64,000 nucleotides of DNA, from the NCBI GenBank assembly GCA_965250085.1, contig OZ252287.1, positions 320,001-384,000 on the forward strand, read 5' to 3'. Below, one piece after another: positions 18,503-43,305 of this stretch (position 1 is the first letter of the stretch; the number at the start of each line of letters is the position of its first letter). The DNA comes from Candidatus Altimarinota bacterium (GTDB lineage: Bacteria; Patescibacteriota; Gracilibacteria; CAIRYL01). The position numbers were made by a program, and so were the translations under genes. The notes beneath the pieces were generated by a model. The model searched no databases, had not been told where the DNA came from, and worked only from the letters and a program-made list of their open reading frames with translations.

Positions 18503-19008
18503 TGCCTGAATATCCATCCAGAATTTTGATAGAGCAGTCGATTCGATGCTGGGAAGCTCAAACAGAAATATCGGGAAAGCTTTCTTCTGAGTTAAGATCT
18601 CTTTGGATCGCTTCACTATCCGCGATCGCCGTTTGCGGAAATTTTCTCTCTTCTAGAGATCCTCTAAATTCAGAATGGCAGATAGGGAGACTATTGGTTG
18701 TTGGCGGGCTTTGTCTATTTGGGGTATGCCTCTTGACGTTGTCTTTTTGGAGACAAGGTAGCCGCGACTCCAACAAGGACGAACTACCGTTCTATAATCG
18801 CCAAGAAATAATGCTTCAGGATCAAGTGTGGAATGAGCTTGCACCCTTGGAGCAAATGGCGGTCCTTAAACAGTACACTATAGCCTTGAAATTGGCAGAC
18901 GAAAATTGTTGGGTCGAAAGCGTAGTTCGACGAAGAGCGCGAGCTTTCTTTTCGGGAGGCATTTTCCTAGTCCTTATAAGTGTTGTTGGCGGGTTTCTCT
19001 ACGCGTAA
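18499..19008 (+). CDS. membrane hypothetical protein
   Basis: About three hydrophobic segments; ATGA overlap with the CHAP gene. Confidence 0.55.
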   Translation: MMPEYPSRILIEQSIRCWEAQTEISGKLSSELRSLWIASLSAIAVCGNFLSSRDPLNSEWQIGRLLVVGGLCLFGVCLLTLSFWRQGSRDSNKDELPFYNRQEIMLQDQVWNELAPLEQMAVLKQYTIALKLADENCWVESVVRRRARAFFSGGIFLVLISVVGGFLYA

Positions 19009-19039
19009 AAGGGGGTATCAATGAACACAGGCGGAGTAG

Positions 19040-19387
19040 ATGGGTAGTTTGCATCAAATAAATGGTGGGGTTCGTGGAGGAGAGAGCCCTCAAGATGAAG
19101 TTGCCTTGACAACAAAGCTTATCATTGATAAGCTCTTTTCACATATTAAGCAACTTTTGGTCGAATACGAAAAACACAAACCGGCAGCGGAAGAGCTCAA
19201 AACGGAATCTCCGTCACAGGCACCGACTGTGCCCTTGGCCACGGGACACGAGACGATGATCAGGGAGGAAATTCAAGCAAGTATCAATAACCTGATCTTA
19301 CAGGAAGAAGCAGGCAGGCGCAGACATAGGCAAATCGAGGAGCGAAAGAGCAACAGTCTTTTTTTTAGACTTTGGTGCCGGATCTAA
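19040..19387 (+). CDS. hypothetical protein
   Basis: 115-aa ORF with GGAG RBS. Confidence 0.45.
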   Translation: MGSLHQINGGVRGGESPQDEVALTTKLIIDKLFSHIKQLLVEYEKHKPAAEELKTESPSQAPTVPLATGHETMIREEIQASINNLILQEEAGRRRHRQIEERKSNSLFFRLWCRI

Positions 19388-19920
19388 CGCGCTCCAAGCT
19401 ACAGATAAATGCGGCGTTGGTGGAATAGGCACGATGCGTCTTCTTATTGTTTGTCGCTAGCGTCGACTGATCTTTGCGGACCGCTTCACTTTCAAAGGGA
19501 GCGTACATCGACTGACTGACCTCGCCATCTTGCACACATCTTCCCTGTACTACTCTCCAAGGAATTCGAAGAGGGCATACCCCTTCTTCACCGCCCCCGC
19601 CCCTGGCAGACCACACACCGGAGGCAGCCCGGCAATGCAGGGCTTCCAGAGCAATTGGGCAGAGCTGTGCTCGGGGCCGCCCAATTGCAATCTTGCTCCT
19701 CGGTGCCGCAGCGCGGCATCCCGAGCACACACCGCTCACACACACGCCCACCGGCGGCCATGCCGCCTCTTCCTGCTGTCCGGGTTCTGATTCCGGTGAC
19801 GAGAATGAGAACAGATATCGGCTCTTCGGCTTCACGATCGGCAACTGAGAACCTGGACACGATGCCGTGTCATCGGAGAATGGAGGATACGCTTCCTCTT
19901 CTTTCCTTCTCGATCCTCTG

Positions 19921-20067
19921 ATGGCAGTAACGGTCTCCGAAGCACGGCAGATCCTCGGTTCTGATGCAGACCCCTTGTCGGACGAAGACATCCGAGAAAT
20001 GCTGGCGAGCTTGTACCTTCTTGCCGAAGAACTCCTTGATCTGCAGGAGAAGGGAGGATTACAGTGA
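19921..20067 (+). CDS. small acidic protein upstream of the recombinase
   Basis: MAVTVSEARQILGSDADPLSDEDIREMLASLYLLAEELLD; helical, directly precedes the recombinase. Confidence 0.55.
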   Translation: MAVTVSEARQILGSDADPLSDEDIREMLASLYLLAEELLDLQEKGGLQ

Positions 20068-20116
20068 TCGCACTGCAGATATTAGAAATTGGAAAAATCT
20101 TTCTCCCCTTGTTCGA

Positions 20117-21649
20117 GTGCCATGCGCTGTGCTCTACTGCCGGGTCTCCAGTCAGAAACAAGTTCGTGAAGGACATGGGCTCAGTTCACAGGAAACCACC
20201 TGCCGGCAATACGCTCGGGAACAAGGGTTTACGGTTGCTCGTGTTTTTACCGATGATGCTTCGGGAGGAGGCGATTTCTGGAAACGGCCGGGGATCTGTC
20301 AGCTCCTTGCATTCCTCGAAGAACAGGAAGAGAAGAAATATGCCGTTATCTTTGACGACATCAAGAGATTTGCCCGCGACACGGTCTTTCACCTGAAACT
20401 TCGGCAGGAACTGGCGGTGAGAAATGCCTATCCCCTCTGTCCCACGTTCCGCTTTGATGATTCTCCAGAAGGGGCGTTTGTAGAAACGGTCATTGCGGCG
20501 ACAGCAGAACTCGAACGCAAGCAGAACCGACGGCAGGTCATTCGTCGGATGAAGGCGCGCCTTCAAGCCGGGTACTGGGTTTTCGGTCCCCCACTCGGAT
20601 ATCGGTATGGGAAGAAACGAGGGCAGAAGATTCTTGTTCCAGATGTACCGGCGTCTGATGCCGTGACGGAGGCTTTGAAGCAATATGCTTCTGGAGAACT
20701 GCCCACGCAGCGGAGTGTCGGACGCTTTCTCCAACAACAAGGGCGCTTCCGGCGCTCGTCAACACACCGATCATTCCCGGCAGAAACCATACGGCGATTG
20801 CTCAGCAATGAGATCTATTCCGGCTGGTGTGTCTGCACCAAATGGAATCTGCGGGTGAAGGGAATTCATAGGGCTCTTATCAGCGAAGAAACGTATCGAA
20901 GGATTCTCAGCAGACTCGATCACCGGAAGAAAACGAAGGGAGTGAGATGTCTCAAGAAACGGGAAGAATTTCCCTTGCGAGGATTTCTGCGATGCACTCG
21001 ATGTGATCGGCAGATCTCTTCCTATTGGGCCAAAGGACGAAGCAAACGATACGCCTACTACGGGTGCCCGAATCCCGGATGCTTCAATCTACGGAAAGAG
21101 AAGATGGAGGACCAGTTTCTTGATCGTCTCCACGATGCCGTGCCTTCTGCAAGTTCTGTAAGACTCCTCGAAGCCGTGCTGACCGATGCCTTTCAGAACA
21201 GACTGACCACACGGGAACAGATACGAACCGCACGGCGGAAAGCAAAACCTCAGATCCAGAAGAAGATCGATTCCTGTCTTGATGCCTTGCAGAGTGCTTC
21301 AGCTCCCGCTGTCCGACAGATCTATGAAGAACGAATCGAGACCCTGCAAGCCGAACTCGACCAGCTGGCAACAGCAAGAAGCGATGAAGCGCAATACACT
21401 CTTGAACCACTCCTCACCAGTGGCAGAGATATTCTGCAAAACCCGGTGCGAACCTGGAAAAACAGCGATCTGAGTCGTCGCCAGATTATCCAGAAACTCG
21501 TCTTCACTCCGCCTATTGCCTATCACAGAGATTCAGGACTTCGAACCGCTCGATTCTCGCTTCTCTACCGTCTCATCCGACAGTCGGAAAAGGGGAAATC
21601 CTGTTTGGTGGACCCGGCTGGATTTGAACCAGCGACCAATCGGTTATGA
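20117..21649 (+). CDS. large serine recombinase (island 1); start uncertain (GTG 20117; frame open from 19964)
   Basis: AVLYCRVSS catalytic motif, DDIKRFARD, FPLRGFLRCTRC zinc ribbon, coiled coil; 3' end overlaps the tRNA antisense. Confidence 0.9.
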   Translation: MPCAVLYCRVSSQKQVREGHGLSSQETTCRQYAREQGFTVARVFTDDASGGGDFWKRPGICQLLAFLEEQEEKKYAVIFDDIKRFARDTVFHLKLRQELAVRNAYPLCPTFRFDDSPEGAFVETVIAATAELERKQNRRQVIRRMKARLQAGYWVFGPPLGYRYGKKRGQKILVPDVPASDAVTEALKQYASGELPTQRSVGRFLQQQGRFRRSSTHRSFPAETIRRLLSNEIYSGWCVCTKWNLRVKGIHRALISEETYRRILSRLDHRKKTKGVRCLKKREEFPLRGFLRCTRCDRQISSYWAKGRSKRYAYYGCPNPGCFNLRKEKMEDQFLDRLHDAVPSASSVRLLEAVLTDAFQNRLTTREQIRTARRKAKPQIQKKIDSCLDALQSASAPAVRQIYEERIETLQAELDQLATARSDEAQYTLEPLLTSGRDILQNPVRTWKNSDLSRRQIIQKLVFTPPIAYHRDSGLRTARFSLLYRLIRQSEKGKSCLVDPAGFEPATNRL

Positions 21650-21681
21650 GCCGACTGCTCTAACCACTGAGCTACGGGTCC
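21606..21681 (-). tRNA. tRNA-Ile2 (CAT anticodon; Met not excluded)
   Basis: GGACCCGTAGCTCAGTGGTTAGAGCAGTCGGCT-CAT-AACCGATTGGTCGCTGGTTCAAATCCAGCCGGGTCCACCA. Confidence 0.92.
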
Positions 21682-29182: not shown

Positions 29183-29953
29183 ATGAAAGCATTTACATTA
29201 TTCCGAACTGGAATCGTTGCCATCATCATGATGGCAATTCTTATCACCGGCATGAGCGTGTCAGCTCAGGAGGAAATCATCCCTGAAAACTTTGGTCTTA
29301 ATATCACAGCAGACCAGCTAAGCGAAATCAAAACCGCTATGCAAAATAGAGACAAAGAAACCGTACAAGCACTTTTTGAAGAATATGATATCAGCATGGG
29401 GGACCTTATGAAATTTCGCCAAGCTTATAAGAAAGGCCACCGTGGACCTTCTGAAGAAGTGAAAGCGGCTCTTGAATCTGGAGACTATGCCGCATTTCAA
29501 GAAGCAATAAGAGAAGATGGTCCTTTCGCAGAAGCCATCGATAGCGAAGATAAATTTGCTCAACTCATCGCTCTTCACGAAGCAAAACAAGATGGAGATC
29601 GAGAAACCGCTCAGCAAATTGCTGATGAGCTCGGACTCAAAAAGCCAGGACGCTCACACAAGGGTTTTGGATCTCAACTTTCTGAAGAAGAACGCGCTGC
29701 TGCTAAAGAAGCAGTTCAGAATGGAGATTACAACGCTTGGATCTCGATAGTGGGATCAGACAGTAAGATTGCAGAGAAGGTGACCACAGAAAATTTTAGT
29801 GATTTTCAGGCACTCCACGAAGCCAGAGAAAATGGAGACAAAGAAACAGCCCGGAAAATCGCTGATGAACTTGAACTCAAGCGCCATGGACATGGACACG
29901 GAGGAAAGGGTGGTCGCTTTAAAGGACCAAACGACCAAAGCGATACCAACTAA
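29183..29953 (+). CDS. secreted helical-repeat protein
   Basis: Signal peptide; two repeats of GDY..ALHEA..GD.ETA..IADEL.LK; His/Gly-rich linkers. Confidence 0.7.
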   Translation: MKAFTLFRTGIVAIIMMAILITGMSVSAQEEIIPENFGLNITADQLSEIKTAMQNRDKETVQALFEEYDISMGDLMKFRQAYKKGHRGPSEEVKAALESGDYAAFQEAIREDGPFAEAIDSEDKFAQLIALHEAKQDGDRETAQQIADELGLKKPGRSHKGFGSQLSEEERAAAKEAVQNGDYNAWISIVGSDSKIAEKVTTENFSDFQALHEARENGDKETARKIADELELKRHGHGHGGKGGRFKGPNDQSDTN

Positions 29954-29988
29954 GCATACTTCTCTTTTGGGGAAAAGAGAAAAGGGAT

Positions 29989-30019
29989 AAAAAAGAGGTC
30001 AGTAAATGACCTCTTTTTT
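29989..30019 (+). terminator. intrinsic terminator
   Basis: AAAAAAGAGGTCA-gtaaa-TGACCTCTTTTTT. Confidence 0.8.
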
Positions 30020-30063
30020 GTAAAACACGGAAAATAGCTTACATAAACCATAAAACAAAACTG

Positions 30064-30153
30064 CCCTTCGACAAGCTCAGGACATTCGACTCGATAAAAA
30101 CGATTCTATGGTTGGAAACCATGAGCGAATCCGCTTTAGCAGATGAGTCGAAT
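30064..30153. repeat. REP-like cluster originally 3' of tRNA-Ile
   Basis: CCCTTCGACAAGCTCAGGAC, CATTCGACTC...GAGTCGAATG inverted arms, GAGCGAATCCGC hairpin. Confidence 0.55.
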
Positions 30154-30388
30154 GGTGGAGCAGTTGCACAAATCTTAGAACCGCTTATTGACCTATTCCG
30201 ACTAGATAGAAAAGTGCTTACCTTAGTCAATGGGTTTACTGCCTACTGTCAGAATACCTTTGTGCTAAAAATCCCGCAACCCGTTGTATCGCCAATTGAT
30301 GGGTATTATTATCCATAACCTCAGGGGGACTAGAACTTATAGTAATAGATAGTATAATAGAGATAGAAGACTACAATTATCAATTTCT

Positions 30389-30601
30389 ATGACTAAACCA
30401 AAAAGATACACAACCGAACTTGCGCCAGAAGGTTTTCAATACAAGCCTGCCTGTGGAACTGTAAATGGTGACGGGAGTGTTACTGTTTCTGGATACAATA
30501 TGCAGCAGAAGGATATTGATGAGTATGGAGCTTCATACAAGAATCTTGATGATGTATTCAAAGAGATTGAAGAAGGTATGGAAAGTGAAGGAAAAAAGTA
30601 A
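30389..30601 (+). CDS. small hypothetical protein
   Basis: 70-aa acidic ORF; TATAAT upstream. Confidence 0.5.
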   Translation: MTKPKRYTTELAPEGFQYKPACGTVNGDGSVTVSGYNMQQKDIDEYGASYKNLDDVFKEIEEGMESEGKK

Positions 30602-30950
30602 TAAGTGTCGGAAGCCTAAAAATTTCCCAACATGGGGTTTGTGGCTAAAACAAAACAAAAACTCCTGTTTTTGAGAAAATGATAAGTGTTGGAAAAGACA
30701 GTTATTTGCACTTTTTCACCTATTTCAACAACCCAGAATAACTATGAATAAAACAAACCTATCCAGACGCCAAAAGTGACAAAAATCCATCTGCCAAAAC
30801 TAACAAAAACGTGTTTTTTGCACAGCCGTTAGCCAAAAAAGCTTTACGTTCGAAGTTGCCGCCTGCTAAAGTTTACTTAGAACAACCAAAAACTACGCCT
30901 ACGAAAGAGGGCGTCTTTTCAATGTAACCTAAGTTTTAACCTTCAAACCT

Positions 30951-31547
30951 ATGAAATTTCAACTAAGAACCAAGAACGACTATCCGTTATTTGAAGTAAC
31001 CTCTGCTTTCCAGAAGTCTGTTCGTAGAGGATTAGAAGAGGAAGCAATGTACTGGGCGATGGAGATGGAAGAAAAATACCATGCCTATCTTTGGAAGCGT
31101 GTCACAGTTATTGCTTCGGAAGATATTGGATTAGCTGATAACGGTATGGCAATCCTTATCAGTTCCCTTAAAGCCAATTATGAAGAAGCAAAGAAAAAGG
31201 ATAGAGACGAACGTCTTCTCTTTGTATCGCATGCAATTCTTGCTCTTTGTCGGTCACGAAAGTCCAGAGAGGTAGATGAGTTCATTCATCATTACATCAT
31301 CAATCACACCAGTCTTTACAAAACACCCGAGAAAATGTCCATTCCTGAGTTCGCATACGATAAGCACACAGCTAAGGGTAAACGCATGGGCAAAGGAATG
31401 GCTCACTTTTGGACTGAAGGTGCAACGCTTGCAAATGATATCGGAGGAAGCCAGTACAAAGATTTTGTTACAGAGTTTTACAAGACAGAGCCAAAGCCAA
31501 AAGAGAAAGTTGAATTAGAAGAAAAACAAAATAAATTGTTTGAATAA
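30951..31547 (+). CDS. stand-alone RarA/MgsA C-terminal-like helical domain protein
   Basis: SAFQKSVRRG, AMYWA, KRVTVIASEDIGLA, KSRE; no Walker A. Confidence 0.7.
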   Translation: MKFQLRTKNDYPLFEVTSAFQKSVRRGLEEEAMYWAMEMEEKYHAYLWKRVTVIASEDIGLADNGMAILISSLKANYEEAKKKDRDERLLFVSHAILALCRSRKSREVDEFIHHYIINHTSLYKTPEKMSIPEFAYDKHTAKGKRMGKGMAHFWTEGATLANDIGGSQYKDFVTEFYKTEPKPKEKVELEEKQNKLFE

Positions 31548-31564
31548 CATTAACCTTTAATCCT

Positions 31565-32131
31565 ATGAAAACCGCAATCTATGCACGTATTTCGACCACA
31601 GACAAAGGTCAGGATGTTGATACTCAGCTCATACCACTCAAAGAATATATAGAACGTAGAGGCTGGGAAACATTCAATATCTACGTTGATGAAATGAGTG
31701 GGAGTAAAGAAAATCGACCTTCCCTTAATGAATTGATGAAGGATGCACATAAGAAAAAGTTCGATGTTGTACTTTGTTTCCGCTTCGACCGTTTTGCACG
31801 GTCTACAAAGCAGTTAATCAATGCGCTCGATACTTTTAACAGTCTGGGAGTCGATTTCGTAAGCTATCAGGAAGCCATTGATACAACTACACCAGCCGGT
31901 CAGATGATGTTTACTATGATTGCTGGATTCGCAACTTTCGAGAGACAAATTATACAAGAGCGAGTCAAAGCAGGTCTTATTAAGGCAAGGGCTAAAGGTA
32001 AGCGTCTTGGTAGACCAAAATCAAATGTAGATGTTGATAAAATCAAGGAACTGAAAGCTAAAGGTTATTCAATCCGAAAAATTGCAGAGATCCTACAAAT
32101 TCCAAAGAGTACGATACAAAATTACCTTTGA
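31565..32131 (+). CDS. small serine resolvase/invertase
   Basis: AIYARIST, RFDRFARS, FERQIIQERVKAG, GKRLGRP, C-terminal HTH. Confidence 0.93.
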   Translation: MKTAIYARISTTDKGQDVDTQLIPLKEYIERRGWETFNIYVDEMSGSKENRPSLNELMKDAHKKKFDVVLCFRFDRFARSTKQLINALDTFNSLGVDFVSYQEAIDTTTPAGQMMFTMIAGFATFERQIIQERVKAGLIKARAKGKRLGRPKSNVDVDKIKELKAKGYSIRKIAEILQIPKSTIQNYL

Positions 32132-32209
32132 TTTTTACAAAACCGCTGGAAAAACGTAAACTATGAATAGCCGAGCAGGTTATTTTTTATTAAAAGGAAC
32201 AAGTTAAAT

Positions 32210-33667
32210 ATGCTCTCAAAATCCGATTATCTTAGGTTCTTACAATGCCCCAGACTCCTGTGGCTTTTTAAGAATCGAAAAGGTCAGGTTGAGCAAACCG
32301 AGAAATCAATAAGCAGTAAAAGGACTATAGAAGAAGGAAATGAGGTGGAGGGATATGCACGTAAGTTATTCCCCACAGGCAAGCTGGCAGAAGGATTTTA
32401 TGAGGAAGCTCACAAGTCTACTAAAGCTCTGCTAGATGCAGATGAAAAAGTTATCTTTCAGGCTACTGCTATTGTAGAAGGTCTATTGGCTATGGCAGAT
32501 ATTTTTGAATATGACGAGTCCAATCAATACTGGGTTATCAACGAGGTTAAAAGTGCAACGGAAGTTGATGATGACCATATTGCAGATGCCTGTTTTCAAA
32601 AAATAGCGTTTGAAAAAGCTGGATTTAAGGTTGGAAAAGTTAATTTGATACATATCAATAACGAATATGTCAGAAATAGCGAAATCAATCCGAAAGAACT
32701 TTTTAAGATTGAAGACATCACCGAACAGGTCAAAAAGATTGAGCCAGAAACCAAAGATAATATCGAGATAGCTCTAAAGGTTGAATCACAAGAAAAAGAA
32801 CCTACCCCTCAAATCGTCAAACAGTGTAAGAGGAGACAGGTTAAACAATGCCCCTACATTCCACATTGCTGGAAGAACATTCCAGATTACTCAATTTATG
32901 ACCTTAGTCGCATTTCAGAAAAGAAACTCATTCAGCTTCTTGATGATGGTGGCTTGGATATTACAGACATACCTATTGAGGGCTTTCCCTTATCTGAAAA
33001 GCAGGAAAATCAAGTTACGGCAGCCCATGCAGGCAAGCCAATGATTGATAAAGAATCCATACGAGAGGAATTATCGAGTTTAGAATATCCACTCTACTTT
33101 CTGGATTACGAGTCATTCTTTCCAGCCATTCCACTTTTCGATGGATTCAAACCATATCAACAAATGTGCTTTCAGTACTCACTACATGTAGTTGAAGCGG
33201 AAGGAGAAAAAGCTAAGCATTATGAATTTTTGCAAAAAGATTTATCAGACCCAGTACCAGCCTTGCTCGAAAGTCTCAGGGTAAACATTGGTGATACTGG
33301 AGCAGTATTGGTTTGGCATAAAACATTTGAAACTCAACGGAATACAGAAATGGGGCTCATGCACCCAGAATATGCAAGCTTCTTAGAATCAGTTAATAGC
33401 CGAGTTTATGATTTAGAAGATATCTTTACCAAGCAATACTTCGTACACCCAGATTTTAAGGGTAGAACATCAATCAAAAAAGTTCTTCCTGTTCTTGTGC
33501 CAGAGCTGTCATACCAAGATTTAGAGATATCAGAAGGAGCTACTGCAAGTTGTAAGTGGTTTGAAATGGTATCACAGACAAAAGATGAGAAGCTCTACAA
33601 GGACTTACTGGCCTATTGTGAGATGGATACCTTAGCAATGGTGAGACTTTTTGAAGCCTTACTTTAA
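32210..33667 (+). CDS. DUF2779-like protein (Cas4/PD-(D/E)XK-like N-terminus plus DEDD/RNase H-like C-terminus)
   Basis: LSKSDY..QCPRLLWL, ADI..EVKS, C..CPY..HC, YFLDYES, FQYSLH, SIKKVLP, YCEMDT. Confidence 0.75.
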   Translation: MLSKSDYLRFLQCPRLLWLFKNRKGQVEQTEKSISSKRTIEEGNEVEGYARKLFPTGKLAEGFYEEAHKSTKALLDADEKVIFQATAIVEGLLAMADIFEYDESNQYWVINEVKSATEVDDDHIADACFQKIAFEKAGFKVGKVNLIHINNEYVRNSEINPKELFKIEDITEQVKKIEPETKDNIEIALKVESQEKEPTPQIVKQCKRRQVKQCPYIPHCWKNIPDYSIYDLSRISEKKLIQLLDDGGLDITDIPIEGFPLSEKQENQVTAAHAGKPMIDKESIREELSSLEYPLYFLDYESFFPAIPLFDGFKPYQQMCFQYSLHVVEAEGEKAKHYEFLQKDLSDPVPALLESLRVNIGDTGAVLVWHKTFETQRNTEMGLMHPEYASFLESVNSRVYDLEDIFTKQYFVHPDFKGRTSIKKVLPVLVPELSYQDLEISEGATASCKWFEMVSQTKDEKLYKDLLAYCEMDTLAMVRLFEALL

Positions 33668-34168
33668 TACCGGATTATCTTTTATCAGGAATAGCTCAAA
33701 GTAGTTATGCCCCTGTCGGTTTTTGAGTGTTCTGGTTTTCAGCTTGCCTTCCTTTACTAGCTTACGAGCGTCTTTCTTCTTCAATCCAAACTTAGATTCG
33801 AGACTCCAATATGAATACCAGCTATCCCTATTCTTAAATACGGATTTGGGAATTCTTTTCTTATTAAGATTATCTTGGCAGTCCAAGCATTTTTGCCCAC
33901 ATTCGTCATACCAAACTTCGGTATTGCACATCTGCTTACCGCAAATAGGACAAGAATAGATACCGTTATCATCATAATGAAATCCTTTTGGATTATCTTT
34001 GAGTTTGGCTTTACGTTTGCATTCCTTCGCGTGCATGTCATAGCACAGCTTCACATAATTCAATAAATTTTGAGCTGACTCTCTGGCTTCGGTATTGCTA
34101 ATCTCTTTACCAAACTCTTTTTTGTAAATTTGTTTGAACTCTTCGATTCTTTCATCGGAAATTTGCAT
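33659..34168 (-). CDS. hypothetical protein with a zinc-finger-like motif
   Basis: ISDERIEEFKQIYKKEFG N-terminus; CPIC...KCLDC. Confidence 0.7.
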   Translation of the reverse strand: MQISDERIEEFKQIYKKEFGKEISNTEARESAQNLLNYVKLCYDMHAKECKRKAKLKDNPKGFHYDDNGIYSCPICGKQMCNTEVWYDECGQKCLDCQDNLNKKRIPKSVFKNRDSWYSYWSLESKFGLKKKDARKLVKEGKLKTRTLKNRQGHNYFELFLIKDNPVLK

Positions 34169-34422
34169 AGGATTGAGGTTAAAAGTTAATTACTCATATT
34201 GTATGAAAAAATGACTGTCCCAAAAACCCCTAAATTTTGAGGTCTGAAAAACGCCTTAAATAAAAGCTTTGATTAAGTCAAAACAACTGTCCCACAAACA
34301 TTTCTTTTACGTCCATAGTGGGTAGGTTTCAGCACCTACCCTTTATTGATTTTATTCTCAAAATTGATATGATACCTATGAAAGACTTGTATAACTTTAA
34401 TCGCCTACATAATTCTTTGAAT

Positions 34423-34635
34423 ATGCTAGAAGACAAGCCAGAAATCCTCACCATTCAGGAGGTTGCGGAGATACTCAATGTTTCAACGCAGACATTACGA
34501 AGATGGGACAATCAAGGTATTGTGAAGTCCTTTCGGGCAACTACTACCCACCCTCGCAGGTATCACAAAAAGGACATAATCGCATATCTGCAATCAAGCC
34601 CTCAAGACGAGGACTCATCTACATCAGATAACTAA
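34423..34635 (+). CDS. MerR-type HTH (excisionase/controller-like)
   Basis: LTIQEVAEILNVSTQTLRRWDNQG...RRY. Confidence 0.8.
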   Translation: MLEDKPEILTIQEVAEILNVSTQTLRRWDNQGIVKSFRATTTHPRRYHKKDIIAYLQSSPQDEDSSTSDN

Positions 34636-34647
34636 GCAACCAATCCT

Positions 34648-36528
34648 ATGAAAAATACTAAAATGGACGGCAAATCAATAAACCCACAAGAAGAACTCTT
34701 GGAGCTTCTCAAGCAGAAATTTCCTGAGATATTCGCAGAAGGTGAAGTTGATTGTCAAAAACTCAAGCAAACTCTTGGAGAAGAGGTTGATTTGGATAGC
34801 GAACGATACGGAATGACATGGGCTGGAAAAAGTAACTGCTTCCGTGTAATTCAAGAACCAACCACAGCCACTCTAAAGCCGGCGCAAGATGAGTCGGTAG
34901 ATTTTAATGAGACTGAGAATCTTTTCATTGATGGAGACAACCTTGAAGTTCTCAAGGTTTTGCAAAAATCCTATTATGGGAAGGTGAAGATGATTTACAT
35001 AGATCCTCCATACAATACTGGTAACGATTTTATCTACAATGATGATTTTAGGCAGAACCTAGAAAGGTATCAGCAGGAGGCTGGTATAAAAGATGACAAT
35101 GGCAACTTACGTGACGATGGTTTAATGAAGAATACTAGAGATAGAGGTCACTATCATTCTGATTGGCTCAACATGATGTACCCTCGGTTGTTCTTGGCTC
35201 GCAACCTCTTGCGGAAAGACGGGGTGATTTTTGTGAGCATTGATGACAATGAGGTTCATAATCTAAGAATGATGATGAACGAGATATTTGGAGAAGAAAA
35301 TTTTATAGCAAAATTTGTGTGGAAAAGAAGACAGAATGCTGACAATAGAAATCAAAGCAACGTTTCAATTGATCACGAGTACGTTTTAGTCTTTTCTCGG
35401 AATTTTGAAGCAACTTCGTTTTCAGGGGTTGCTATTGATACTTCAAAGTACAAAAATCCAGATAATGACCCCCGTGGCGATTGGGCAAGTATAGACTTAT
35501 CAGGTTTAGCCACTCAAAACCAAAGACCAAATCTTCATTACGAAATAACAGACCCCAATACAGGCGTTTCATATCCACCAAATCCGAAACGTGGCTGGTC
35601 GAAGTCGAAAAATGTCGTATTAGAGATGATTAAAGATGGACGAATTTTATTCCCCAAAAAACCAACAGGACGACCAAGAGAAAAGAAGTTTATTGCTGAT
35701 TTACGAAAGCAAATTACAGGTTTTTCTTCCGTGCTTAATTCTTCAATCGTTGGCTATACAACAAATGGAACAAGAGAGGTCTCTCAAATCTTTGATGAGA
35801 AGATTTTTGATTTTCCGAAACCAGTCAGTTTGTTAAAGCAACTCATTCAACAAGGAGTATCAAATAACGATATCGTTCTCGACTTCTTCGCAGGCTCAGG
35901 TACAACAGCACATGCCGTTATGGCTTTGAACGCAGAAGATGGAGGAAACCGTAAGTGTATATCAGTCCAGCTTCCAGAGCTATGCGATGAGAAGAGCGAA
36001 GCTTACGAGGCAGGTTACAAGACCATTGCAGATATATCAAAAGAACGTATCAGACGTGCTGGCAAGAAAATAACAGATGAAAAAGGCAGCCAATTGGACC
36101 TAGACGGCAATAAGCTAGATACGGGATTCAAAGTGTTCAAACTCGACCAGAGCAATTTCAAAATTTGGAGAACCGACGTGAAGAACGACAAGGAATTGAT
36201 AGAGCAGATGAACATATTTGTTGATAATGTGAAGAAAGAGAGTACGCAAGACAATATCCTCTACGAGCTAATACTCAAGAGCGGGCTTGATTTGAATGTC
36301 AACGTAGAGAAAAAAAAGGCAGACAAAAAAGTCTACTACTCACTAGATGGGGGCAAGTTGGTTATTTGCCTTGAAGATAAGCTATCTCAAGATTTAGTCG
36401 ATGCAATCCTTGCTGATAAGCCTGAGAAAGCTATCTGTCTCGATAAAGCGTTCGGAGGAAACGACCAACTCAAAACGAATACAGTCTTGCAAATGGAAGC
36501 TGGGAAGATAGATTTTAAGATAATTTAA
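34648..36528 (+). CDS. mod: type III RM methyltransferase
   Basis: GDNLEVLK, IYIDPPYNTG, HSDWLNMMYPRL, FPKP, LDFFAGSGTT. Confidence 0.95.
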   Translation: MKNTKMDGKSINPQEELLELLKQKFPEIFAEGEVDCQKLKQTLGEEVDLDSERYGMTWAGKSNCFRVIQEPTTATLKPAQDESVDFNETENLFIDGDNLEVLKVLQKSYYGKVKMIYIDPPYNTGNDFIYNDDFRQNLERYQQEAGIKDDNGNLRDDGLMKNTRDRGHYHSDWLNMMYPRLFLARNLLRKDGVIFVSIDDNEVHNLRMMMNEIFGEENFIAKFVWKRRQNADNRNQSNVSIDHEYVLVFSRNFEATSFSGVAIDTSKYKNPDNDPRGDWASIDLSGLATQNQRPNLHYEITDPNTGVSYPPNPKRGWSKSKNVVLEMIKDGRILFPKKPTGRPREKKFIADLRKQITGFSSVLNSSIVGYTTNGTREVSQIFDEKIFDFPKPVSLLKQLIQQGVSNNDIVLDFFAGSGTTAHAVMALNAEDGGNRKCISVQLPELCDEKSEAYEAGYKTIADISKERIRRAGKKITDEKGSQLDLDGNKLDTGFKVFKLDQSNFKIWRTDVKNDKELIEQMNIFVDNVKKESTQDNILYELILKSGLDLNVNVEKKKADKKVYYSLDGGKLVICLEDKLSQDLVDAILADKPEKAICLDKAFGGNDQLKTNTVLQMEAGKIDFKII

Positions 36529-36532
36529 TACT

Positions 36533-39187
36533 ATGAAATTACAATTCGACTCAACACAGGAATACCAGCTAGAAGCCATCAAGGCTACTACAGACCTATT
36601 CAAAGGACAACCCTTGAACAAGGGTGACTTTGAGATGAAACTAGCACTTCCAGAAGACCAGTTGCAAATAGGTAACGAATTTGTAGTTGGTAATAACCTC
36701 GTGCTTGCAGAAGAAACAATGCTCAAGAATCTTCAAGCAATTCAAGGTATAAACGAACTAGAAAAGTCTCAAGAGCTAGATGGAAAGCATTTCTCTGTTG
36801 AAATGGAAACTGGGACAGGAAAAACCTACGTCTACTTACGAACCATTCATGAGCTATACAAGCAATATGGTTTCAAAAAGTTTGTCATAGTAGTTCCAAG
36901 CATTGCTATCAAAGAAGGAGTAGTAAAAAACCTCAAAATTACACAGGAACACTTTGACATGCTCTACGAAAACCCAGAGATGGACTTCTACGTGTACGAC
37001 ACCAAGAAACGAGGACAGCTCAAGAATTTTGCTACTACCAATGCTTTGCAAGTCCTTGTCATCAACATCGACTCCTTTGCCAAGTTCAGCGAGGACAAAA
37101 AAGGTAAAAATATCATCTACAAGGATAGCGATTGGGGTATTCCTATTGAGTACATACAAGGCGTGAAACCTGTCGTGATTGTAGACGAACCACAGAATAT
37201 GGAAACAGATATCAGGAAGAAGGCTATTGATAATCTTAACCCTCTCTGCACCCTTCGCTACTCTGCTACCCACAAATACCATTACAATCTTGTACACAAG
37301 CTCGACCCAGTAAGTGCCTATGATTTAGGTTTGGTAAAAAAGATTGAAGTGGATTCGGTCATTACCGAAGAAAGTCATAATGGAGCATACGTTCAACTCA
37401 AGTCGGTTGATGCCAAAAAGACCAAAGTCACAGCAAAAATGCAGATAGATGTAGCTGATAAAAGCGGTGTAAGCAAGAAAGTAGTTACTTTCAAGGTGGG
37501 TGATGACCTTTTCGAGGTCTCAGGTCAAAGAGACGTTTATCGAGACGGTTACATAATAAACGAGATTGATGTAGCAGGTCAGGCTGTGGCGTTTAGTAAT
37601 GGCTCAATACTTTACGTCGGACAAACCAAAGGAGGATTAAATGACGATGTGATGAAATTTCAGATAAAAAAGACTGTTCAGAACCATTTCGAGAAAGAAA
37701 AACGGTTGAAGGAGCAAGGAATCAAAGTCCTGTCCCTCTTTTTCATAGACCGTGTAGCAAACTATCGGGACTATCAGGATGGAAAAGCCCTCAATGGTAA
37801 ATTCGCCGACTGGTTTGAAGAAGCATTCAATGAGATGGTTCAAAATCCAATGTACAAAGACCTCATACCACATGATGTTGCTAAAGTTCACAATGGATAT
37901 TTTTCTGCTGATAAAAAAGGGCTCATCAAAGATACCAAAGGAAATACAAAAGCTGATGATGATACGTATGCCCTTATCATGAGAGACAAAGAGAAATTAC
38001 TCTCCATAGAAGAGCCTCTTCGGTTCATATTTTCTCATTCTGCCCTACGGGAGGGGTGGGACAATCCAAACGTTTTTCAAATCTGTACCCTAAACGAATC
38101 CCGTTCGGACATAAAGAAACGTCAAGAAATCGGACGCGGTTTACGTCTACCTGTGAATCAGGAGGGTGTACGAGTATTTGATGACAATGTAAATATCCTT
38201 ACTGTGACAGCCAATGAAAGCTATGAAGATTTTGCCAGAAGTTTGCAGACTGAAATCGAGCAGGACTGTGGCGTAGATTTCAAAGGACGAGTGAAAAACA
38301 AAGCCAAAAGAACAACCGTGAAACTCAAGAAGGGATATCAGCTTGATGAGAATTTCAAAGACCTTTGGAGCAAAATCCAGCACAGAACACGGTATCAGGT
38401 TGAATATGAGACCACTGAATTGATTGAGAGAGCTTCAAAGGAGCTTGAGGCAATGAATATCACCGTTCCTAAGATAATGAGCCTAAAAGCACGGCTAGAT
38501 ATTACAAGAGAAGGAGTTGAGACAGGATTGACTAGCGTCCGTGAAAAGAGGGTCGAAGTTAAAATGACCAGCATCCCAGATATTTTAGGGTACATTCAGG
38601 GAAAAACACGACTTACAAAAGATACTATCCTCAAAATCATTGAAGAATCAGGAAGAGTGTCAGATATTTTCAAGAATCCACAGCAGTTCATGGATAATGC
38701 AGCCACTCTTATCAATACCGTTCTTCGTAAAATGATGATAGACGGTATCAAGTACGAGAAGATTGCTGGTGAGGTGTGGGAAATGCGTCAATTTGAAAAC
38801 GAAGAGCTTGAGGGATATTTGGATAGCATGTTTGAGGTGAATAACTCAGATAAAACACTTTACGATTATGTTGTGTGTGATTCTAAGATCGAAAGCCAGT
38901 TCGCTAAAGACCTCGAGGTAAATGAGGACGTAAAGTTCTACATCAAGCTCCCATATTGGTTCAAAATTGAAACCCCTATTGGTTCGTACAATCCAGACTG
39001 GGCAGTAGTTTTTGAAGCTGACAAAAGGGTTTACTTTGTTGCTGAAAGTAAAGGAACAACTCACCTTGATGAGCTACGAGAAGCAGAGCGTATGAAAATC
39101 AAATGTGGTGAAAAACATTTCGACGAATTTGATGATGTTGAGTTCAAAGCACCTGTTAGCAAAGTAAGCGAAATGGTCACGAGCTAA
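36533..39187 (+). CDS. res: type III RM restriction endonuclease/helicase
   Basis: EMETGTGKT, VDEPQ, RYSATH, LREGWDNPNVFQIC, QEIGRGLRL, YNPDWA..ESK. Confidence 0.95.
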   Translation: MKLQFDSTQEYQLEAIKATTDLFKGQPLNKGDFEMKLALPEDQLQIGNEFVVGNNLVLAEETMLKNLQAIQGINELEKSQELDGKHFSVEMETGTGKTYVYLRTIHELYKQYGFKKFVIVVPSIAIKEGVVKNLKITQEHFDMLYENPEMDFYVYDTKKRGQLKNFATTNALQVLVINIDSFAKFSEDKKGKNIIYKDSDWGIPIEYIQGVKPVVIVDEPQNMETDIRKKAIDNLNPLCTLRYSATHKYHYNLVHKLDPVSAYDLGLVKKIEVDSVITEESHNGAYVQLKSVDAKKTKVTAKMQIDVADKSGVSKKVVTFKVGDDLFEVSGQRDVYRDGYIINEIDVAGQAVAFSNGSILYVGQTKGGLNDDVMKFQIKKTVQNHFEKEKRLKEQGIKVLSLFFIDRVANYRDYQDGKALNGKFADWFEEAFNEMVQNPMYKDLIPHDVAKVHNGYFSADKKGLIKDTKGNTKADDDTYALIMRDKEKLLSIEEPLRFIFSHSALREGWDNPNVFQICTLNESRSDIKKRQEIGRGLRLPVNQEGVRVFDDNVNILTVTANESYEDFARSLQTEIEQDCGVDFKGRVKNKAKRTTVKLKKGYQLDENFKDLWSKIQHRTRYQVEYETTELIERASKELEAMNITVPKIMSLKARLDITREGVETGLTSVREKRVEVKMTSIPDILGYIQGKTRLTKDTILKIIEESGRVSDIFKNPQQFMDNAATLINTVLRKMMIDGIKYEKIAGEVWEMRQFENEELEGYLDSMFEVNNSDKTLYDYVVCDSKIESQFAKDLEVNEDVKFYIKLPYWFKIETPIGSYNPDWAVVFEADKRVYFVAESKGTTHLDELREAERMKIKCGEKHFDEFDDVEFKAPVSKVSEMVTS

Positions 39188-39253
39188 TTTGGCGGTCTAT
39201 TTGATTAAAAATTTACAAATCTGCTAGAAAAGTTTATTACTTAAAAAATTAAG

Positions 39254-40720
39254 ATGAGTGGTGAAAAGGGCTATTTCTCAGGCTATTTCCAAGCAAAGTC
39301 GAAAACAATAAGCGACTATGGAGCGATAGACATATCTTTAGTTTCAGATTTGCCATTGTTTATTGACCCATTTTTGCTTTTCAATAGCAAGAACAAGCAA
39401 TATCAGCAATTGCACAAGGATATTATAAATTATCTGCAATTTTTACGACAAAAATCTCTCTTAGGTGGAATCGATAAGGGGCTGATTACAGCTTGGTACA
39501 AATTTTCAGAGGTTTCACAAAATTGGTTTGGCTATTCTCAATCAGGCAATCGTGGTAGCGGATTAGGAAATATGTTCGCTCAAGCCTTGAATAAGAATCT
39601 ACATAGAATTTTTAGAGATTTTGGAACTGAAAAAATTACACAAGGCAGTCATTTAGAAAAGCTATGTTTAATTGAAAAGGGTGTTGGCAAAGACCATATC
39701 AGCGATTTTACAACAAATCTAATTAAAGAATTTTTATTAGAATACACTCAAGAATTTGCCAAGAAACATATTGATAAGAAGTTTTTAAAGAATTTTGCTG
39801 TTGCAAAGGTTTGCTTCAATTACAAAACCGAAACATGGGAAACAAAAACCTTTCTATTACCAGAATACAAAGGAGATTATGTGCTTCTTACTCCTAGAGA
39901 TATTTTAACTCTAGATGATACGTGGATTAACAAATCTGATTTAGTTTCAGATTTTGAAATGATTCCAAATTGTGTAGAAAATGACCAGATGAGAGGGCAA
40001 ATTAACAATTACTTTTTATCTCAACTACCTGAAAAGGCTACAAAAAAGGATAAATCAGAAGCTGCAATTAAGACTATCAGAAAATATCCAGAGCTTTTTG
40101 ATTACTACATTAAGAGAAAAGAGGAGCAAGGTGATATAGCTGTCGGAGTTAGTGCGGAAAAGGTAAAGAAAGCAGAAGAGCTATTTATTGCAAGAATTAA
40201 AGAATTGGTCCCATTACTCCATTCTCAGAGTCAATTTTATGAGTTAATTGGAGACACTTATAAGGAATCATTGGATAGAGTCAGTTACTTAAAACGGTTT
40301 ATTGAGAGTAATGATGGATACAGGTTTTTCTATCTTAAAGGTAGTCCGATTAAACGGGAAGAAGACCTGCAGTTGTTATACAAGCTAGTTTGGCATGGGA
40401 GTCCTTCTGATGTTAATCGCGAAGTAAATAACGGAAGGGGAGATGTTGATTTTAAAGTATCCAGAGGAAGTGCAGATAAAACGCTTGTAGAATTTAAGTT
40501 GGCGTCAAATACAAAATTAAGACAAAATCTTGCAAAGCAAGTTGAGATTTACGAAGAAGCAAATGACACAAAAAAGAGCTTAAAGGTGATAATGTTTTTC
40601 ACCCAAGAAGAAGAGGTTAAAGTTAGAGATATATTGTCCGATTTAGGTCTTGCTGGTAGTCCGAATGTTATTTTAATTGACGCAAGGAACGACAATAAAC
40701 CATCAGCTTCAAATGCATAA
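39254..40720 (+). CDS. uncharacterised protein with a C-terminal PD-(D/E)XK-like motif
   Basis: 488 aa; DLPLFIDPFLLF N-terminus; REVNNGRGDVDF...VEFKLASN. Confidence 0.7.
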   Translation: MSGEKGYFSGYFQAKSKTISDYGAIDISLVSDLPLFIDPFLLFNSKNKQYQQLHKDIINYLQFLRQKSLLGGIDKGLITAWYKFSEVSQNWFGYSQSGNRGSGLGNMFAQALNKNLHRIFRDFGTEKITQGSHLEKLCLIEKGVGKDHISDFTTNLIKEFLLEYTQEFAKKHIDKKFLKNFAVAKVCFNYKTETWETKTFLLPEYKGDYVLLTPRDILTLDDTWINKSDLVSDFEMIPNCVENDQMRGQINNYFLSQLPEKATKKDKSEAAIKTIRKYPELFDYYIKRKEEQGDIAVGVSAEKVKKAEELFIARIKELVPLLHSQSQFYELIGDTYKESLDRVSYLKRFIESNDGYRFFYLKGSPIKREEDLQLLYKLVWHGSPSDVNREVNNGRGDVDFKVSRGSADKTLVEFKLASNTKLRQNLAKQVEIYEEANDTKKSLKVIMFFTQEEEVKVRDILSDLGLAGSPNVILIDARNDNKPSASNA

Positions 40721-40929
40721 GGATAATTTGGGCTTCTAGCTGTTCTGCAAACCGAAAACACACAAATATACCTAATGAGGATGCAAGGTGCTGTAAATCG
40801 AATCCTAGCAGCATTCAGGAGCTTTTTATATCACCATTCAACATGGTTCTAATTTTAAACGTGACAAACCTTAACTAACTCAGGACAACATGTTAAAATT
40901 AGAACAGCTCTAAGTCATACCTCAATGAA

Positions 40930-42681
40930 ATGTCGAACAATAAAGCAAAATTAGATTGGCGAGAACTCTTAGATGAGTATGAGAATGAAAAAGCAGAAGG
41001 TTATATTCTGTATCTTAGGCGTTCAATAAAAAGAAGAAAGAAAAATGGAATAGCTATTGATGAAGAGGAGGAGAAGCAAGAACGTATAGATAAAGTATCT
41101 ATCGAACAGCAAAGAGAGGTGTGTGAACATATTGCTCAATCACGAAATCTTAAAATCGTTGCAACATACGAAGAAGAAGTCTCAGCAAAAAAGCCAGGTA
41201 AGCGTAGTGAGTTTAAGAAGATGCTCGAACATCTACAAACCAGTAAAAAATCTCTAGGAGTACTTGCATGGGCGCCAGACAGACTTAGTAGGAATGCAAT
41301 CGAGGCTGGAATTCTTATCCAGCAATTTCTGGATAGAGATATAATGGATTTCCAATTTGCTACATATCACTTTAATCAAGATGATACAGGGGTTGAATAT
41401 CTCATGATGGAGTTTGCACGTGCGATGGGTTATTCCCTTCGTCTTCGTAAAAATGTACTAAGAGGAATGTATAAGGGGTTTTTCGATGAAGGAGAGTGGT
41501 TGTTTGCTGATAAGTTTGGATACACTAGCTTACTTAAAACCTTTTCAGGTGGTGAGCGTAAAAGAGTAAAGTTCCCTATACCTCATGAAGGCGATGGAGA
41601 GCTTATGGGGGAATTTGAAGCAGTACAAATGGCTTTTGATTTGAGATTGAAAGGATATTCCTTAGAAAGAATTTCTTCAGAAATAAATAAAAAGGGATTT
41701 ATAACCAAAAAGGGTAAGCGAGGGAAGATGACCAAACAGAAGCTTAGTGGGAACAAAAGTCGTAAAGGTTATCTTCACGATTCTTTTTATTATGGAATGA
41801 TGGAAATGGAATGGGGCAATAAAGATATTTCAGACAGGACTATCTTCGATGACCATGGAACTGAGATTCTATTTACACCTGTTGTTCTAAAGGAGGTGTA
41901 TGACCAAGTTCAGCTAATAAACGATAGTAAGGCGAATATCAAAGCTAAAACTCATGATGACCTACCATTTAGGGGGCAAATCTTTTGTGGGCATTGTGAA
42001 GGTCCATTAACTCCTCAAAATAAGAAGGGGTATGCATATTACTACTGTTATAACCCTACATGTGTAGCGAATAAGGCTCACAGCCAATCAAGTAAGAAGG
42101 CAAAAAATGAAGGAATAACCGGAACAGCTTTGTTTAATGAAATAGGTAAGATAATTAAAAAGGGATTCAAACTCACAAAAGTAGAGTTCACTTATTATCT
42201 CGCTAGCCTAGAGAAACAACACCAAATAAAGAAACAGGTACGAGCAACTGATTTAAAACGCATAGCAGCAAATAAGGGGCATATTAGAAGAGAGATGGAC
42301 CAAAAGACATCTGAGTTCACTGCAGCACTTGGAAGGCTTAGAAGCCCAAATCAGAAGACCATCAAAGCTATGAATAAAGAACATGATAAGAAAATGGCAC
42401 AATTACAAACTCGGTATGATTCAGAGAATGAAAAAGAGAATCATATTAACCAAGCAAATCATGCTTGGACTCAGGATTTGATTCATTGGTTAGAACACAT
42501 GCAAAAAGCCCATACCTACTGGGAAAAAGCTACATTCGACCAAAAAAGGATAATTGCTGAAAATCTCTTCTTAGAACTGGCAATCAAAGATGGGAAATTG
42601 GCTAGCTTTACATACAAAAAACCCTACTCCGCTTTGGAGAAGGCTAATTTGTCATACAATGGTGGACCTGGGAAGACTTGA
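40930..42681 (+). CDS. large serine recombinase (island 2)
   Basis: ILYLRRS, SIEQQ, SAKKPGKRSEF, APDRLSRN, FRGQIFCGHC..YYYC..C; 3' end overlaps the tRNA antisense. Confidence 0.92.
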   Translation: MSNNKAKLDWRELLDEYENEKAEGYILYLRRSIKRRKKNGIAIDEEEEKQERIDKVSIEQQREVCEHIAQSRNLKIVATYEEEVSAKKPGKRSEFKKMLEHLQTSKKSLGVLAWAPDRLSRNAIEAGILIQQFLDRDIMDFQFATYHFNQDDTGVEYLMMEFARAMGYSLRLRKNVLRGMYKGFFDEGEWLFADKFGYTSLLKTFSGGERKRVKFPIPHEGDGELMGEFEAVQMAFDLRLKGYSLERISSEINKKGFITKKGKRGKMTKQKLSGNKSRKGYLHDSFYYGMMEMEWGNKDISDRTIFDDHGTEILFTPVVLKEVYDQVQLINDSKANIKAKTHDDLPFRGQIFCGHCEGPLTPQNKKGYAYYYCYNPTCVANKAHSQSSKKAKNEGITGTALFNEIGKIIKKGFKLTKVEFTYYLASLEKQHQIKKQVRATDLKRIAANKGHIRREMDQKTSEFTAALGRLRSPNQKTIKAMNKEHDKKMAQLQTRYDSENEKENHINQANHAWTQDLIHWLEHMQKAHTYWEKATFDQKRIIAENLFLELAIKDGKLASFTYKKPYSALEKANLSYNGGPGKT

Positions 42682-42736
42682 ACTTCCGACCTCACGATTA
42701 TCAGTCGTGCGCTCTAACCAGCTGAGCTACAGGTCC
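42660..42736 (-). tRNA. tRNA-Ile(GAT)
   Basis: GGACCTGTAGCTCAGCTGGTTAGAGCGCACGACT-GAT-AATCGTGAGGTCGGAAGTTCAAGTCTTCCCAGGTCCACCA. Confidence 0.95.
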
Positions 42737-43032
42737 AGAAAAGTAGAAAGTGAAGAGTTATAAAGTTTTTAAAGTTCAAAATTTTTTATTCTATTACTGA
42801 GAATCAAGAGTTGGACTTTGTTCCTATAGGTCCATAGCCAAGGTATTTTTGTGATTTTTCCGAGGAAAATCAAGAGAAAAGTGAGAACCTCATCTGTGTT
42901 TTCTTTTTCTGGTGCAATGCTTTTGTACTGTTAGATTGCTTTTTTTCTCTAAAAATAAATTTATTCAATCTTAATAAAAATTGCTTTTGAATAAATATTT
43001 TATTCATGAACAAATTTGTAGAACACGAATAT

Positions 43033-43305
43033 TTATTTTTCTCCGATCAAATATTTGCATCCTTCTGCTCCCATTTGAGCTGAATGAACCGTGTTTGCAG
43101 GCACGTCAACCCTCTCCCCTGCTGCGTATATGTGTGTGTTTCCTTCTGAAGTAAGTGTCATCTCTCCTTGCAGAATAACATGTGCTGTTTTTGTTTGGTG
43201 GGTATGGTCTGCGTACAATGTGTATGGCTCGTCTCTCCATACATACACATGTGCATATCCTTCATCTTGAAGTTGCTGCTCGAGTTGAGAAATATCCATA
43301 CACAA
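43033..43305 (-). CDS. small cupin protein
   Basis: HTH...HVILQGEM...VPANTVHSA. Confidence 0.8.
   Translation of the reverse strand: MCMDISQLEQQLQDEGYAHVYVWRDEPYTLYADHTHQTKTAHVILQGEMTLTSEGNTHIYAAGERVDVPANTVHSAQMGAEGCKYLIGEK

Follow-up and report, generated by a model that had tools for sequence, protein, structure and literature searches.

The stretch of DNA analyzed here (the window) comprises 64,000 nucleotides (nt), positions 320001–384000 of the 1.37-Mb single-contig genome of a Candidatus Altimarinota bacterium (contig OZ252287.1; G000:C1), and includes an island, termed island 2, whose large serine recombinase (LSR) gene terminates inside a tRNA gene. This recombinase, P0001, is encoded on the plus strand by an open reading frame (ORF) of 583 amino acids (aa) at 40930–42681. 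Its C terminus reads ...LSYNGG-PGKT, wherein the last four residues and the stop codon are contributed by antisense tRNA-Ile sequence, and the final 22 nt of the ORF lie within an intact tRNA-Ile(GAT) gene on the minus strand (42660–42736; RF00005, 75 bits), the presumed integration target. A 9-nt core, AATGGTGGA, is present at this right end of the island (42658–42666, plus strand) and is matched exactly at the left end (30151–30159, plus strand), where its TGGTGGA corresponds to the displaced 3′ end of tRNA-Ile. At the left junction (attL), the host DNA consists of a tRNA-trailer element at 30062–30150 (no strand assigned) that ends GAGTCGAA and that has copies elsewhere directly 3′ of tRNAs. 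The codon phase at the left core is the same as that of the recombinase gene (AAT GGT GGA), and reading continues as NGG-AVAQILEPLIDLFRLDRKVLTLVNGFTAYCQNTFVLKIPQPVVSPIDGYYYP to a stop codon at 30316–30318. We refer to this segment of 52 codons plus stop (30160–30318, plus strand), which lacks a start codon of its own, as the parked tail. The cores, the recombinase end and the in-frame tail are thus as the preliminary description of this DNA had them.

The 9-nt core by itself is too short for significance across 12.5 kb, and a listing of repeats contained no direct repeat longer than this core. We placed the boundaries by means of the tRNA rather than the repeat alone: the tRNA-Ile gene is intact at the right end, and a 7-nt fragment of it (TGGTGGA) follows the host trailer ...GAGTCGAA at attL. 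At locus L008 of G004, which belongs to a related genus, an intact tRNA-Ile(GAT) gene is immediately adjacent to this trailer, the join being ...gagtcgaATGGTGGAcctggg, and removal of 30160–42666 from the window would yield exactly this trailer/tRNA-Ile join. A synteny comparison found no flanking genes shared between the G004 tRNA-Ile locus and the window, for which reason we take the empty site as an analogue, not an orthologue. On this evidence, island 2 (~30160–42657) is probably a genomic island with defence cargo that was put into the 3′ end of tRNA-Ile(GAT) by its LSR.

In this family of genomes, several tRNAs are followed directly on their 3′ side by the conserved trailer element, which is ~85 nt in length. 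Besides the copy in the window (30062–30150), copies were located in L004 (1501–1588), L008 (1501–1583), L002, L005 and L006, and the tRNAs that they follow include tRNA-Glu in the same genome as island 2 (L004) and tRNA-Ile, tRNA-Tyr and others in G004. Its outer stem is CATTCGACTC...GAGTCGAATG, and its inner hairpin covaries among the copies (GGTT..AACC versus GGTC..GACC); the element has no match in Rfam. The end of the trailer constitutes the host half of the island target site, and this may explain how related recombinases come to use different tRNAs.

P0001 carries the Resolvase (PF00239, 8.4e-14), Recombinase (PF07508, 3.1e-07) and Zn_ribbon_recom (PF13408, 1.2e-06) domains. Residues R30, S32, D117, R118 and R121, which we take to be catalytic, are invariant in all 17 aligned sequences, and a DRLxR motif is present. 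By this domain composition P0001 is assigned to the LSRs; it also carries an insert of ~20 residues after the catalytic serine. A search with the P0001 profile against the PDB had no match at E ≤ 0.001, and what appeared at E ≤ 5 was ribosomal noise. The homologue search recovered 25 proteins, including 16 close homologues (44–85% identity, 487–593 aa); named database matches come from Candidatus Peribacteraceae, a lineage of the candidate phyla radiation. All 16 are conserved up to ...NLSxxGG, after which 1–20 divergent residues follow. Where the DNA could be read, the recombinase genes of relatives end in tRNA-Ala(GGC) (G161, 85% identity), tRNA-Ile(TAT) (L012, 46%) and tRNA-Ile(GAT) (L013), and in a non-tRNA site in G036 (52%), where the tRNA-Ile gene near the island is an unoccupied site. 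The G161 and L012 islands have their ends in common with that of the window but differ in flanks and cargo. An LSR alignment search of metagenome contigs found only recombinases that are 23–39% identical.

In the G036 recombinase gene (L104, G036:C1, 1703–3433), a TGA falls in frame once, at a conserved position; instead of a break in the gene, it may indicate that this genome uses genetic code 25. After the GG the gene reads on for 84 residues into host DNA at the right junction (attR). We considered this extension as a second tail and rejected it, given a probability of 2% from hhalign and the insertion of the island at a non-tRNA site.

We then asked how far the parked tail exceeds what chance would provide. 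Downstream of the left core, the remaining two forward frames stay open for 10 and 6 codons. The probability of at least 52 open codons is 0.032 by a first-order Markov simulation with the composition of the island, and 0.027 as judged from 6066 off-frame positions within the genes of the island. Openness of the tail frame is barely above chance and was noticed post hoc; it is suggestive only, and the case for the tail is made by its conservation. At the attL of G036, the corresponding frame reads NGG-TVAQKLEPLIELFKFE... (42 codons; NGG-TVAQKLEPLIELFKFEVEVIESAESFSFFCAENLAPKILTPA when read through to two successive stops), and at that of L012, located 10.9 kb from its LSR, it reads NGG-PEAVALEPLYQVFAFNEK... 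(at greater length, NGG-PEAVALEPLYQVFAFNEKAVEAAHFFVAFCK...). The L012 frame is open for 100 codons, and a minus-strand ORF overlaps it from the 26th codon onward. A tail in the LSR frame is thereby present in three of the three related islands for which both ends are readable (the window, G036 and L012). The left end of the G161 island breaks within the tail at the end of a contig (L109, G161:C131, 4711), and its last 20 residues share 90% identity with the window tail.

A profile built from three tail sequences was used to search 1.84 billion representative proteins, of which 12 matched at E ≤ 1e-3. Among these, ten are ORFs of 46–83 aa (E values from 1e-21 to 5e-4) with unrelated N termini, in which similarity begins at the core (x)GG and continues onward with the consensus GG-PVAQRLEPLIEMFRLDEKVLxYAEKFxxYCxENF. 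These ten small ORFs are of the kind expected when gene calling is applied to left junctions. Comparison of the tail with Pfam and PHROG gave no family match at curated significance; a sub-threshold MOM1-like match in Pfam was obtained for 3 of 13 tail members (best E value 0.008), and the PHROG scan covered two tail sequences, that of the window and P0029. A total of 160 pattern matches to the tail in JGI metagenome contigs yielded 0 confirmed occurrences.

These data leave very little room for the simplest alternative, wherein the repeat of 9 nt and the open stretch of 52 codons are both without meaning. The length of the open stretch would by itself allow it (p ~0.03), but homologous tails occur at 12 other sites, with E values as low as 4e-9 in a search of the 1.84 billion proteins, and the logic of the empty site argues against it as well. 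The case against chance is accordingly weak in respect of length and holds in respect of conservation, which is seen in G036, in L012 and in the ten database ORFs.

It is improbable, though somewhat less so, that the left end is conserved as DNA, namely as an arm of the phage-type attachment site (attP) plus regulatory sequence, with an open frame that is incidental. The best-conserved nucleotides between the window and G036 (48 nt at 85%) indeed begin at the core, and a motif, GCAGTTGC, recurs at the attL of another island of this genome near 780 kb. Nevertheless, conservation extends over ~35 codons, well past an LSR half-site, and many of the changes are synonymous or conservative (D/E, R/K, L/F, I/V). 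Differences between the window and G036 tails number 16, 21 and 25 at the three codon positions. There are no indels within the tail, yet indels are found just downstream of it. When all six frames were compared between these two islands, only the tail frame was open in both, and this frame had the top gapless BLOSUM score (81, the next being 60). Moreover, the tail of island 1, described below, is demonstrably a protein C terminus in 18 homologues.

The best dyad symmetry of attP, sought for locating the central dinucleotide, matched at 10–12 of 28 positions and did not decide its place. A promoter scan of 29900–31000 gave a single promoter-like site where 2.1 would be expected by chance, and the only sound feature of the promoter/terminator scan of this interval was a terminator-like hairpin with flanking T/A runs at 29989–30019, scored on the minus strand.

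Alternatively, the tail could belong to an independent small gene at attL whose translation, in the integrated state, begins at a start codon of the flanking host DNA. The trailer element does contain an in-frame ATG, at 30121, which opens a 66-aa ORF, and gene callers predict ten such small ORFs. We nevertheless hold this to be quite unlikely, in view of N-terminal parts before the GG that are unrelated and variable in length, the lack of a conserved start at or after the core, the minus-strand-scored hairpin with T/A runs just upstream (29989–30019), and the dependence of such a gene on whatever DNA the island lands in. The findings instead support the tail as a genuine coding segment, conserved as such, by which the recombinase would be continued only when attP is rejoined. 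The small "hypothetical" ORFs with parked tails at left junctions are pieces of genes, and the LSR gene has its true 3′ end at the opposite side of the island.

A second, unrelated recombinase family in the same window has the same design, as the preliminary description had also recognized. The LSR of island 1, P0002 (19964–21649, plus strand), has its stop codon inside an antisense tRNA-Met(CAT) gene (21606–21681). The core of this island, TGGTGGACC, occurs at 13367 and 21606, and the left copy is followed in frame by a 27-residue tail, LVTSQINPVAEELRRWEIVLRGEKPAA, and a stop (13367–13458, plus strand), with the tail itself parked at 13376–13455; G+C content jumps at 13367. In this family the tail is the actual C terminus of P0040, and its motif ends all 18 of the closest P0002 homologues (P0040–P0057), with W515 invariant. 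Uninterrupted tail-bearing proteins and antisense-tRNA-like endings are both present in the database: a crude regular expression applied to the 120 listed P0002 homologues assigned 15 tail endings, 68 antisense-tRNA-like endings and 37 others. AlphaFold models the P0040 tail as helices (pLDDT 81–87) and puts the crossover within helix 494–503, and the model matches the SPbeta, Bxb1 and phiC31 integrases (Foldseek E values from 1e-17 to 1e-10). The models examined for a coiled-coil motif within the zinc-ribbon domain were those of P0040 and of P0161, a database protein considered below, and long helices were modelled in both (362–419 in P0040).

Island 1 (13367–21681) is a block of 52% G+C in a genome of ~39% G+C, and also holds a P4-type tyrosine integrase (13813–15036), a tRNA 3′ fragment (13617–13668) and a CHAP-domain protein. 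Named members of the P0002 family occur in Alphaproteobacteria, and one member that is 91% identical to P0002 resides on a 3.35-Mb contig of another organism, which together suggest recent transfer across phyla.

In total, four LSR islands at tRNA 3′ ends were found in this genome, which has 40 tRNAs. The third is a degenerate copy resembling island 1 (G000:C1, 603089–612476) at tRNA-Ala(GGC), where the tail is in frame at attL behind a trailer element and the LSR, being frameshifted and carrying a TAG, is a pseudogene. The fourth represents a third LSR lineage (G000:C1, 780198–789652) at tRNA-Gln(CTG), with an 11-nt core followed by a 45-residue in-frame tail; the other frames after its core close at 10 and 6. 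A homologue of this tail was absent from 400 genomes of the class, the one match (E value 0.009) being low-complexity sequence.

The preliminary description had gone on to propose tail swapping as a general property of tRNA-targeting serine recombinases, and here the evidence was unfavorable. In a survey of 165 distant LSR loci (a set that includes duplicate records and 9 loci that ran off their contigs), 49 recombinase genes stop inside an antisense tRNA. The far end could be located by an exact core of at least 10 nt at seven usable loci, for which L145 was counted once together with its duplicate L023, and L164 was dropped because its core match was spurious and fell into a gene. Reconstruction of attP at these seven loci adds 0, 0, 3, 3, 4, 9 or 30 residues after the core. 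The reconstructed proteins comprise 531, 532, 528, 531, 550, 528 and 561 aa and the integrated forms, in the same order, 543, 532, 528, 528, 548, 528 and 591 aa, such that reconstruction changes the length by −30 to +3 residues relative to the integrated form. Long conserved tails are therefore a property of particular LSR lineages and not of the class as a whole.

We also looked for proteins in which a recombinase end and a tail are already joined, and a word-indexed search for longer proteins found a single cluster. Two of its members, P0160 and P0161 (222 and 228 aa), contain the C-terminal region of an LSR ending ...FVRLGG followed by a tail that is 85% identical to that of the window, with the final 20 residues identical to those of G161. 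A cluster-mate, P0162, has the same LSR part with unrelated sequence after the GG, and another, P0163, is cut earlier. One recombinase end is thus found with two alternative tails, split at the GG. The G161 tail is in this way joined to a different recombinase end in a database protein, and the context upstream of this tail may be polymorphic in that population, as tandem or excised forms. A search of viral contigs for P0160 found nothing.

For both the P0001 and P0002 families, attP as reconstructed lies inside the integrase ORF, such that integration changes the C terminus. Because attP falls within the 3′ end of the recombinase gene, this gene exists in two forms: it spans attP, and its two states encode different C termini. 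The excised circle would encode a protein of 631 aa whose last 52 residues are the conserved tail. On integration, crossover inside AATGGTGGA moves the tail 12.5 kb away to attL, and four residues of antisense tRNA take its place. Since the integrated element would make only the short form and the circle only the long one, each isoform would coincide with one reaction. The long form would be the enzyme present for integration (attP × attB), and the short form would be that of the resident state and of excision. We consider that the tail is most likely kept for helping the integration-state enzyme, be it in activity, in the choice of site, in stability or by making it insensitive to an excision factor, and that its loss on integration would damp or redirect the resident recombinase. 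To this explanation as a whole, in which the island entered tRNA-Ile(GAT) by means of its LSR and the tail is split off at integration and kept for the integration-state enzyme, we assign a probability of roughly 0.6.

Note that several observations weigh against this explanation. The 631-aa tail-bearing form was absent from the P0001 family in the homologue, tail-profile and longer-protein searches. The P0160/P0161 fusions are of limited help: their LSR part is only 29% identical to P0001 as compared with 85% for the tail, and is not in G161, for which reason a junction of tandem islands is likelier than a true excised form; the fold predicted for P0161 is of low confidence (mean pLDDT 56.8, with 34–50 in the tail). 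Because the ten database matches were ascertained as ORFs, their openness is not independent evidence, although their sequence similarity is. The first ~25 nt of the tail fall within the expected attP half-site (~25 bp), and part of the "VAQxLEPL" conservation could therefore be at the DNA level. Seven sequencing runs were found, four of which contain the locus, and contigs from these four, mapped onto 29500–43200, revealed neither a circular junction nor an empty site. These runs represent one sample, probably the source, and one contig spans the whole island with no joints; because contigs drop rare variants, the absence of an excision junction says little. Finally, the function given to the tail is drawn from the logic of the arrangement.

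Structure prediction lent weak support to contact between tail and enzyme. Docking of the tail with LSR residues 1–579 gave a median score of 0.50 (runs of 0.50, 0.00 and 0.54; partner pLDDT at least 34), as compared with 0.00 for the best of three controls. In the calibration set, 58 of 80 solved complexes and 2 of 110 mismatched pairs attained the mark, but at scores of 0.60 or lower only 7 of the 80 did so, together with both mismatches. A pass at this level is, by that calibration, more often wrong than right.

The tail could in principle act in cis as a recombination directionality factor (RDF). Pfam and PHROG scans revealed no similarity of the tail to a described RDF family. Furthermore, the tail is attached in the excised state, opposite to where a classical RDF acts, and it cannot be a classical excision factor. 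Perhaps, instead, the tail is a sensor of topology, with long and short isoforms that have opposite preferred directions or different sensitivity to an RDF; directionality would then be set by the position of the gene's 3′ terminus and not by a separate factor alone, and tandem islands would donate tails to each other's recombinases. We regard this proposal, in all its parts, as distinctly tentative.

Slightly more doubtful still is a "suicidal" truncation, in which the tail is essential and integration disables the recombinase and fixes the island, such that excision requires a related LSR in trans or a tandem island as tail donor. In the island 1 family, the crossover lies inside a confidently modelled C-terminal helix pair with the invariant Trp, the four LSR islands at tRNAs in this genome could act in trans, and one of the four is already a pseudogene. 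Archaeal SSV-type integrases, moreover, are reported to be split by their own integration (PMC7253208), and McMurdie 2011 raised the idea of tandem supply for DsiB. Set against these points, the integrated-form LSR genes are intact in 16 of 16 homologues (44–85% identity), and near relatives occupy different tRNAs in different host families. The latter indicates that the lineage keeps moving from the integrated state, and hence that the short form, with helpers, would still support excision. By the same reasoning, the tail would be selected through integration or through events on the circle, as is proposed in the explanation that we favor.

Adjoining the parked tail is a conserved 70-aa ORF (30389–30601, plus strand) with no Pfam or PHROG match that belongs to the backbone of these islands. 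Each of the four related islands has an ORF of 70–81 aa immediately following the tail, being kept in G161, G036 and L012 (1679–1924 in the last), and on the circle it would sit directly downstream of the full-length recombinase gene. Its product might be considered a candidate accessory or directionality factor.

All but one of the ORFs between the two cores are on the plus strand, as are all of those named here. Following the 70-aa ORF are genes for an MgsA_C-like protein (30951–31547; PF12002, 1.7e-09; phrog_33349, ATPase), a small serine recombinase of the resolvase/invertase type with a helix-turn-helix (HTH) domain (31565–32131; PF00239, 4e-44) that has a homologue in the G036 island, a DUF2779/RNase H-like protein (32210–33667; Pfam) and a predicted DNA-binding protein of the MerR/HTH_17 type (34318–34635; Pfam). 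A type III restriction-modification system occupies 34648–39187 and consists of a methyltransferase, Mod (34648–36528; PF01555, 2.2e-39), with 75–78% nucleotide identity in G161, and a restriction enzyme, Res (36533–39187; PF19778, PF04851), with helicase and endonuclease domains. The last gene before that of P0001 encodes a 488-aa protein (39254–40720) with no Pfam match and with similarity to phrog_30194, a family of unknown function. The small serine recombinase is thus a neighbor of the restriction-modification system, and recombinases of this kind have been reported as markers of defence loci.

P0001 shares its domain set with the phiC31, Bxb1, SPbeta and LI/A118 integrases, of which SPbeta, Bxb1 and phiC31 are also matched by the model from the island 1 family, but it is so divergent that sequence search finds no solved LSR. 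In the canonical phage serine integrases, attP lies outside the int ORF and the same protein is made in both states. Large serine integrases are valued for genome engineering because of their strict direction, which is set by a separate factor. If true, a protein that changes with integration state would be a different and self-contained way to couple enzyme properties to the topology of the element. Given four tRNA-end islands in a 1.37-Mb genome and 49 of 165 LSR loci that end in a tRNA, such elements constitute a major mobile class in reduced genomes of this kind.

A switch at the C terminus is mechanistically plausible by analogy. The extreme C terminus of phiC31 integrase is reported to contact its RDF, and engineered fusions of an RDF to the integrase C terminus are described as acting within the same subunit and switching the preferred direction (Olorunniji et al. 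2017). Those fusions are man-made and favor attL × attR, whereas the natural tail is without a known RDF match and is present in the excised state. Archaeal SSV-type integrases are likewise described as having attP within the integrase ORF, with disruption of the gene on integration (PMC7253208). They are tyrosine recombinases split in mid-gene into two large parts, whereas here all recognized domains stay together and only the last 27–52 residues are exchanged.

The ssrA islands of Dehalococcoides come closer. The 3′ end of dsiB, which encodes a CcrB-like recombinase, is stated always to overlap the attachment site with its stop codon outside the island, and the module includes a small serine recombinase; the authors suggested that DsiB may need the circle, or an adjacent tandem island as donor of the 3′ fragment, for full function (PMC3146451). 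The target in that case is ssrA rather than a tRNA 3′ end, and the accessible portion of that report gives divergent C termini and no conserved parked tail, whereas here the tail is conserved in 13 + 18 sequences of two families. The myxophage Mx8 also has attP in the coding sequence of its integrase, and integration is reported to give a recombinant gene with a new 3′ end (IntP/IntX) whose altered protein is active with changed specificity (PMC6070905). Mx8, however, is a phage with a tyrosine recombinase, whereas the enzyme here is a large serine recombinase that is carried by a defence island of a bacterium in the candidate phyla radiation, and the piece removed is a short tail conserved over many elements. 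Literature searches, which were not exhaustive, found no earlier description of such conserved parked tails. What appears to be new, in comparison with these systems, is that two unrelated families of LSR conserve the parked tail, and that this occurs at tRNA 3′ ends in reduced genomes.

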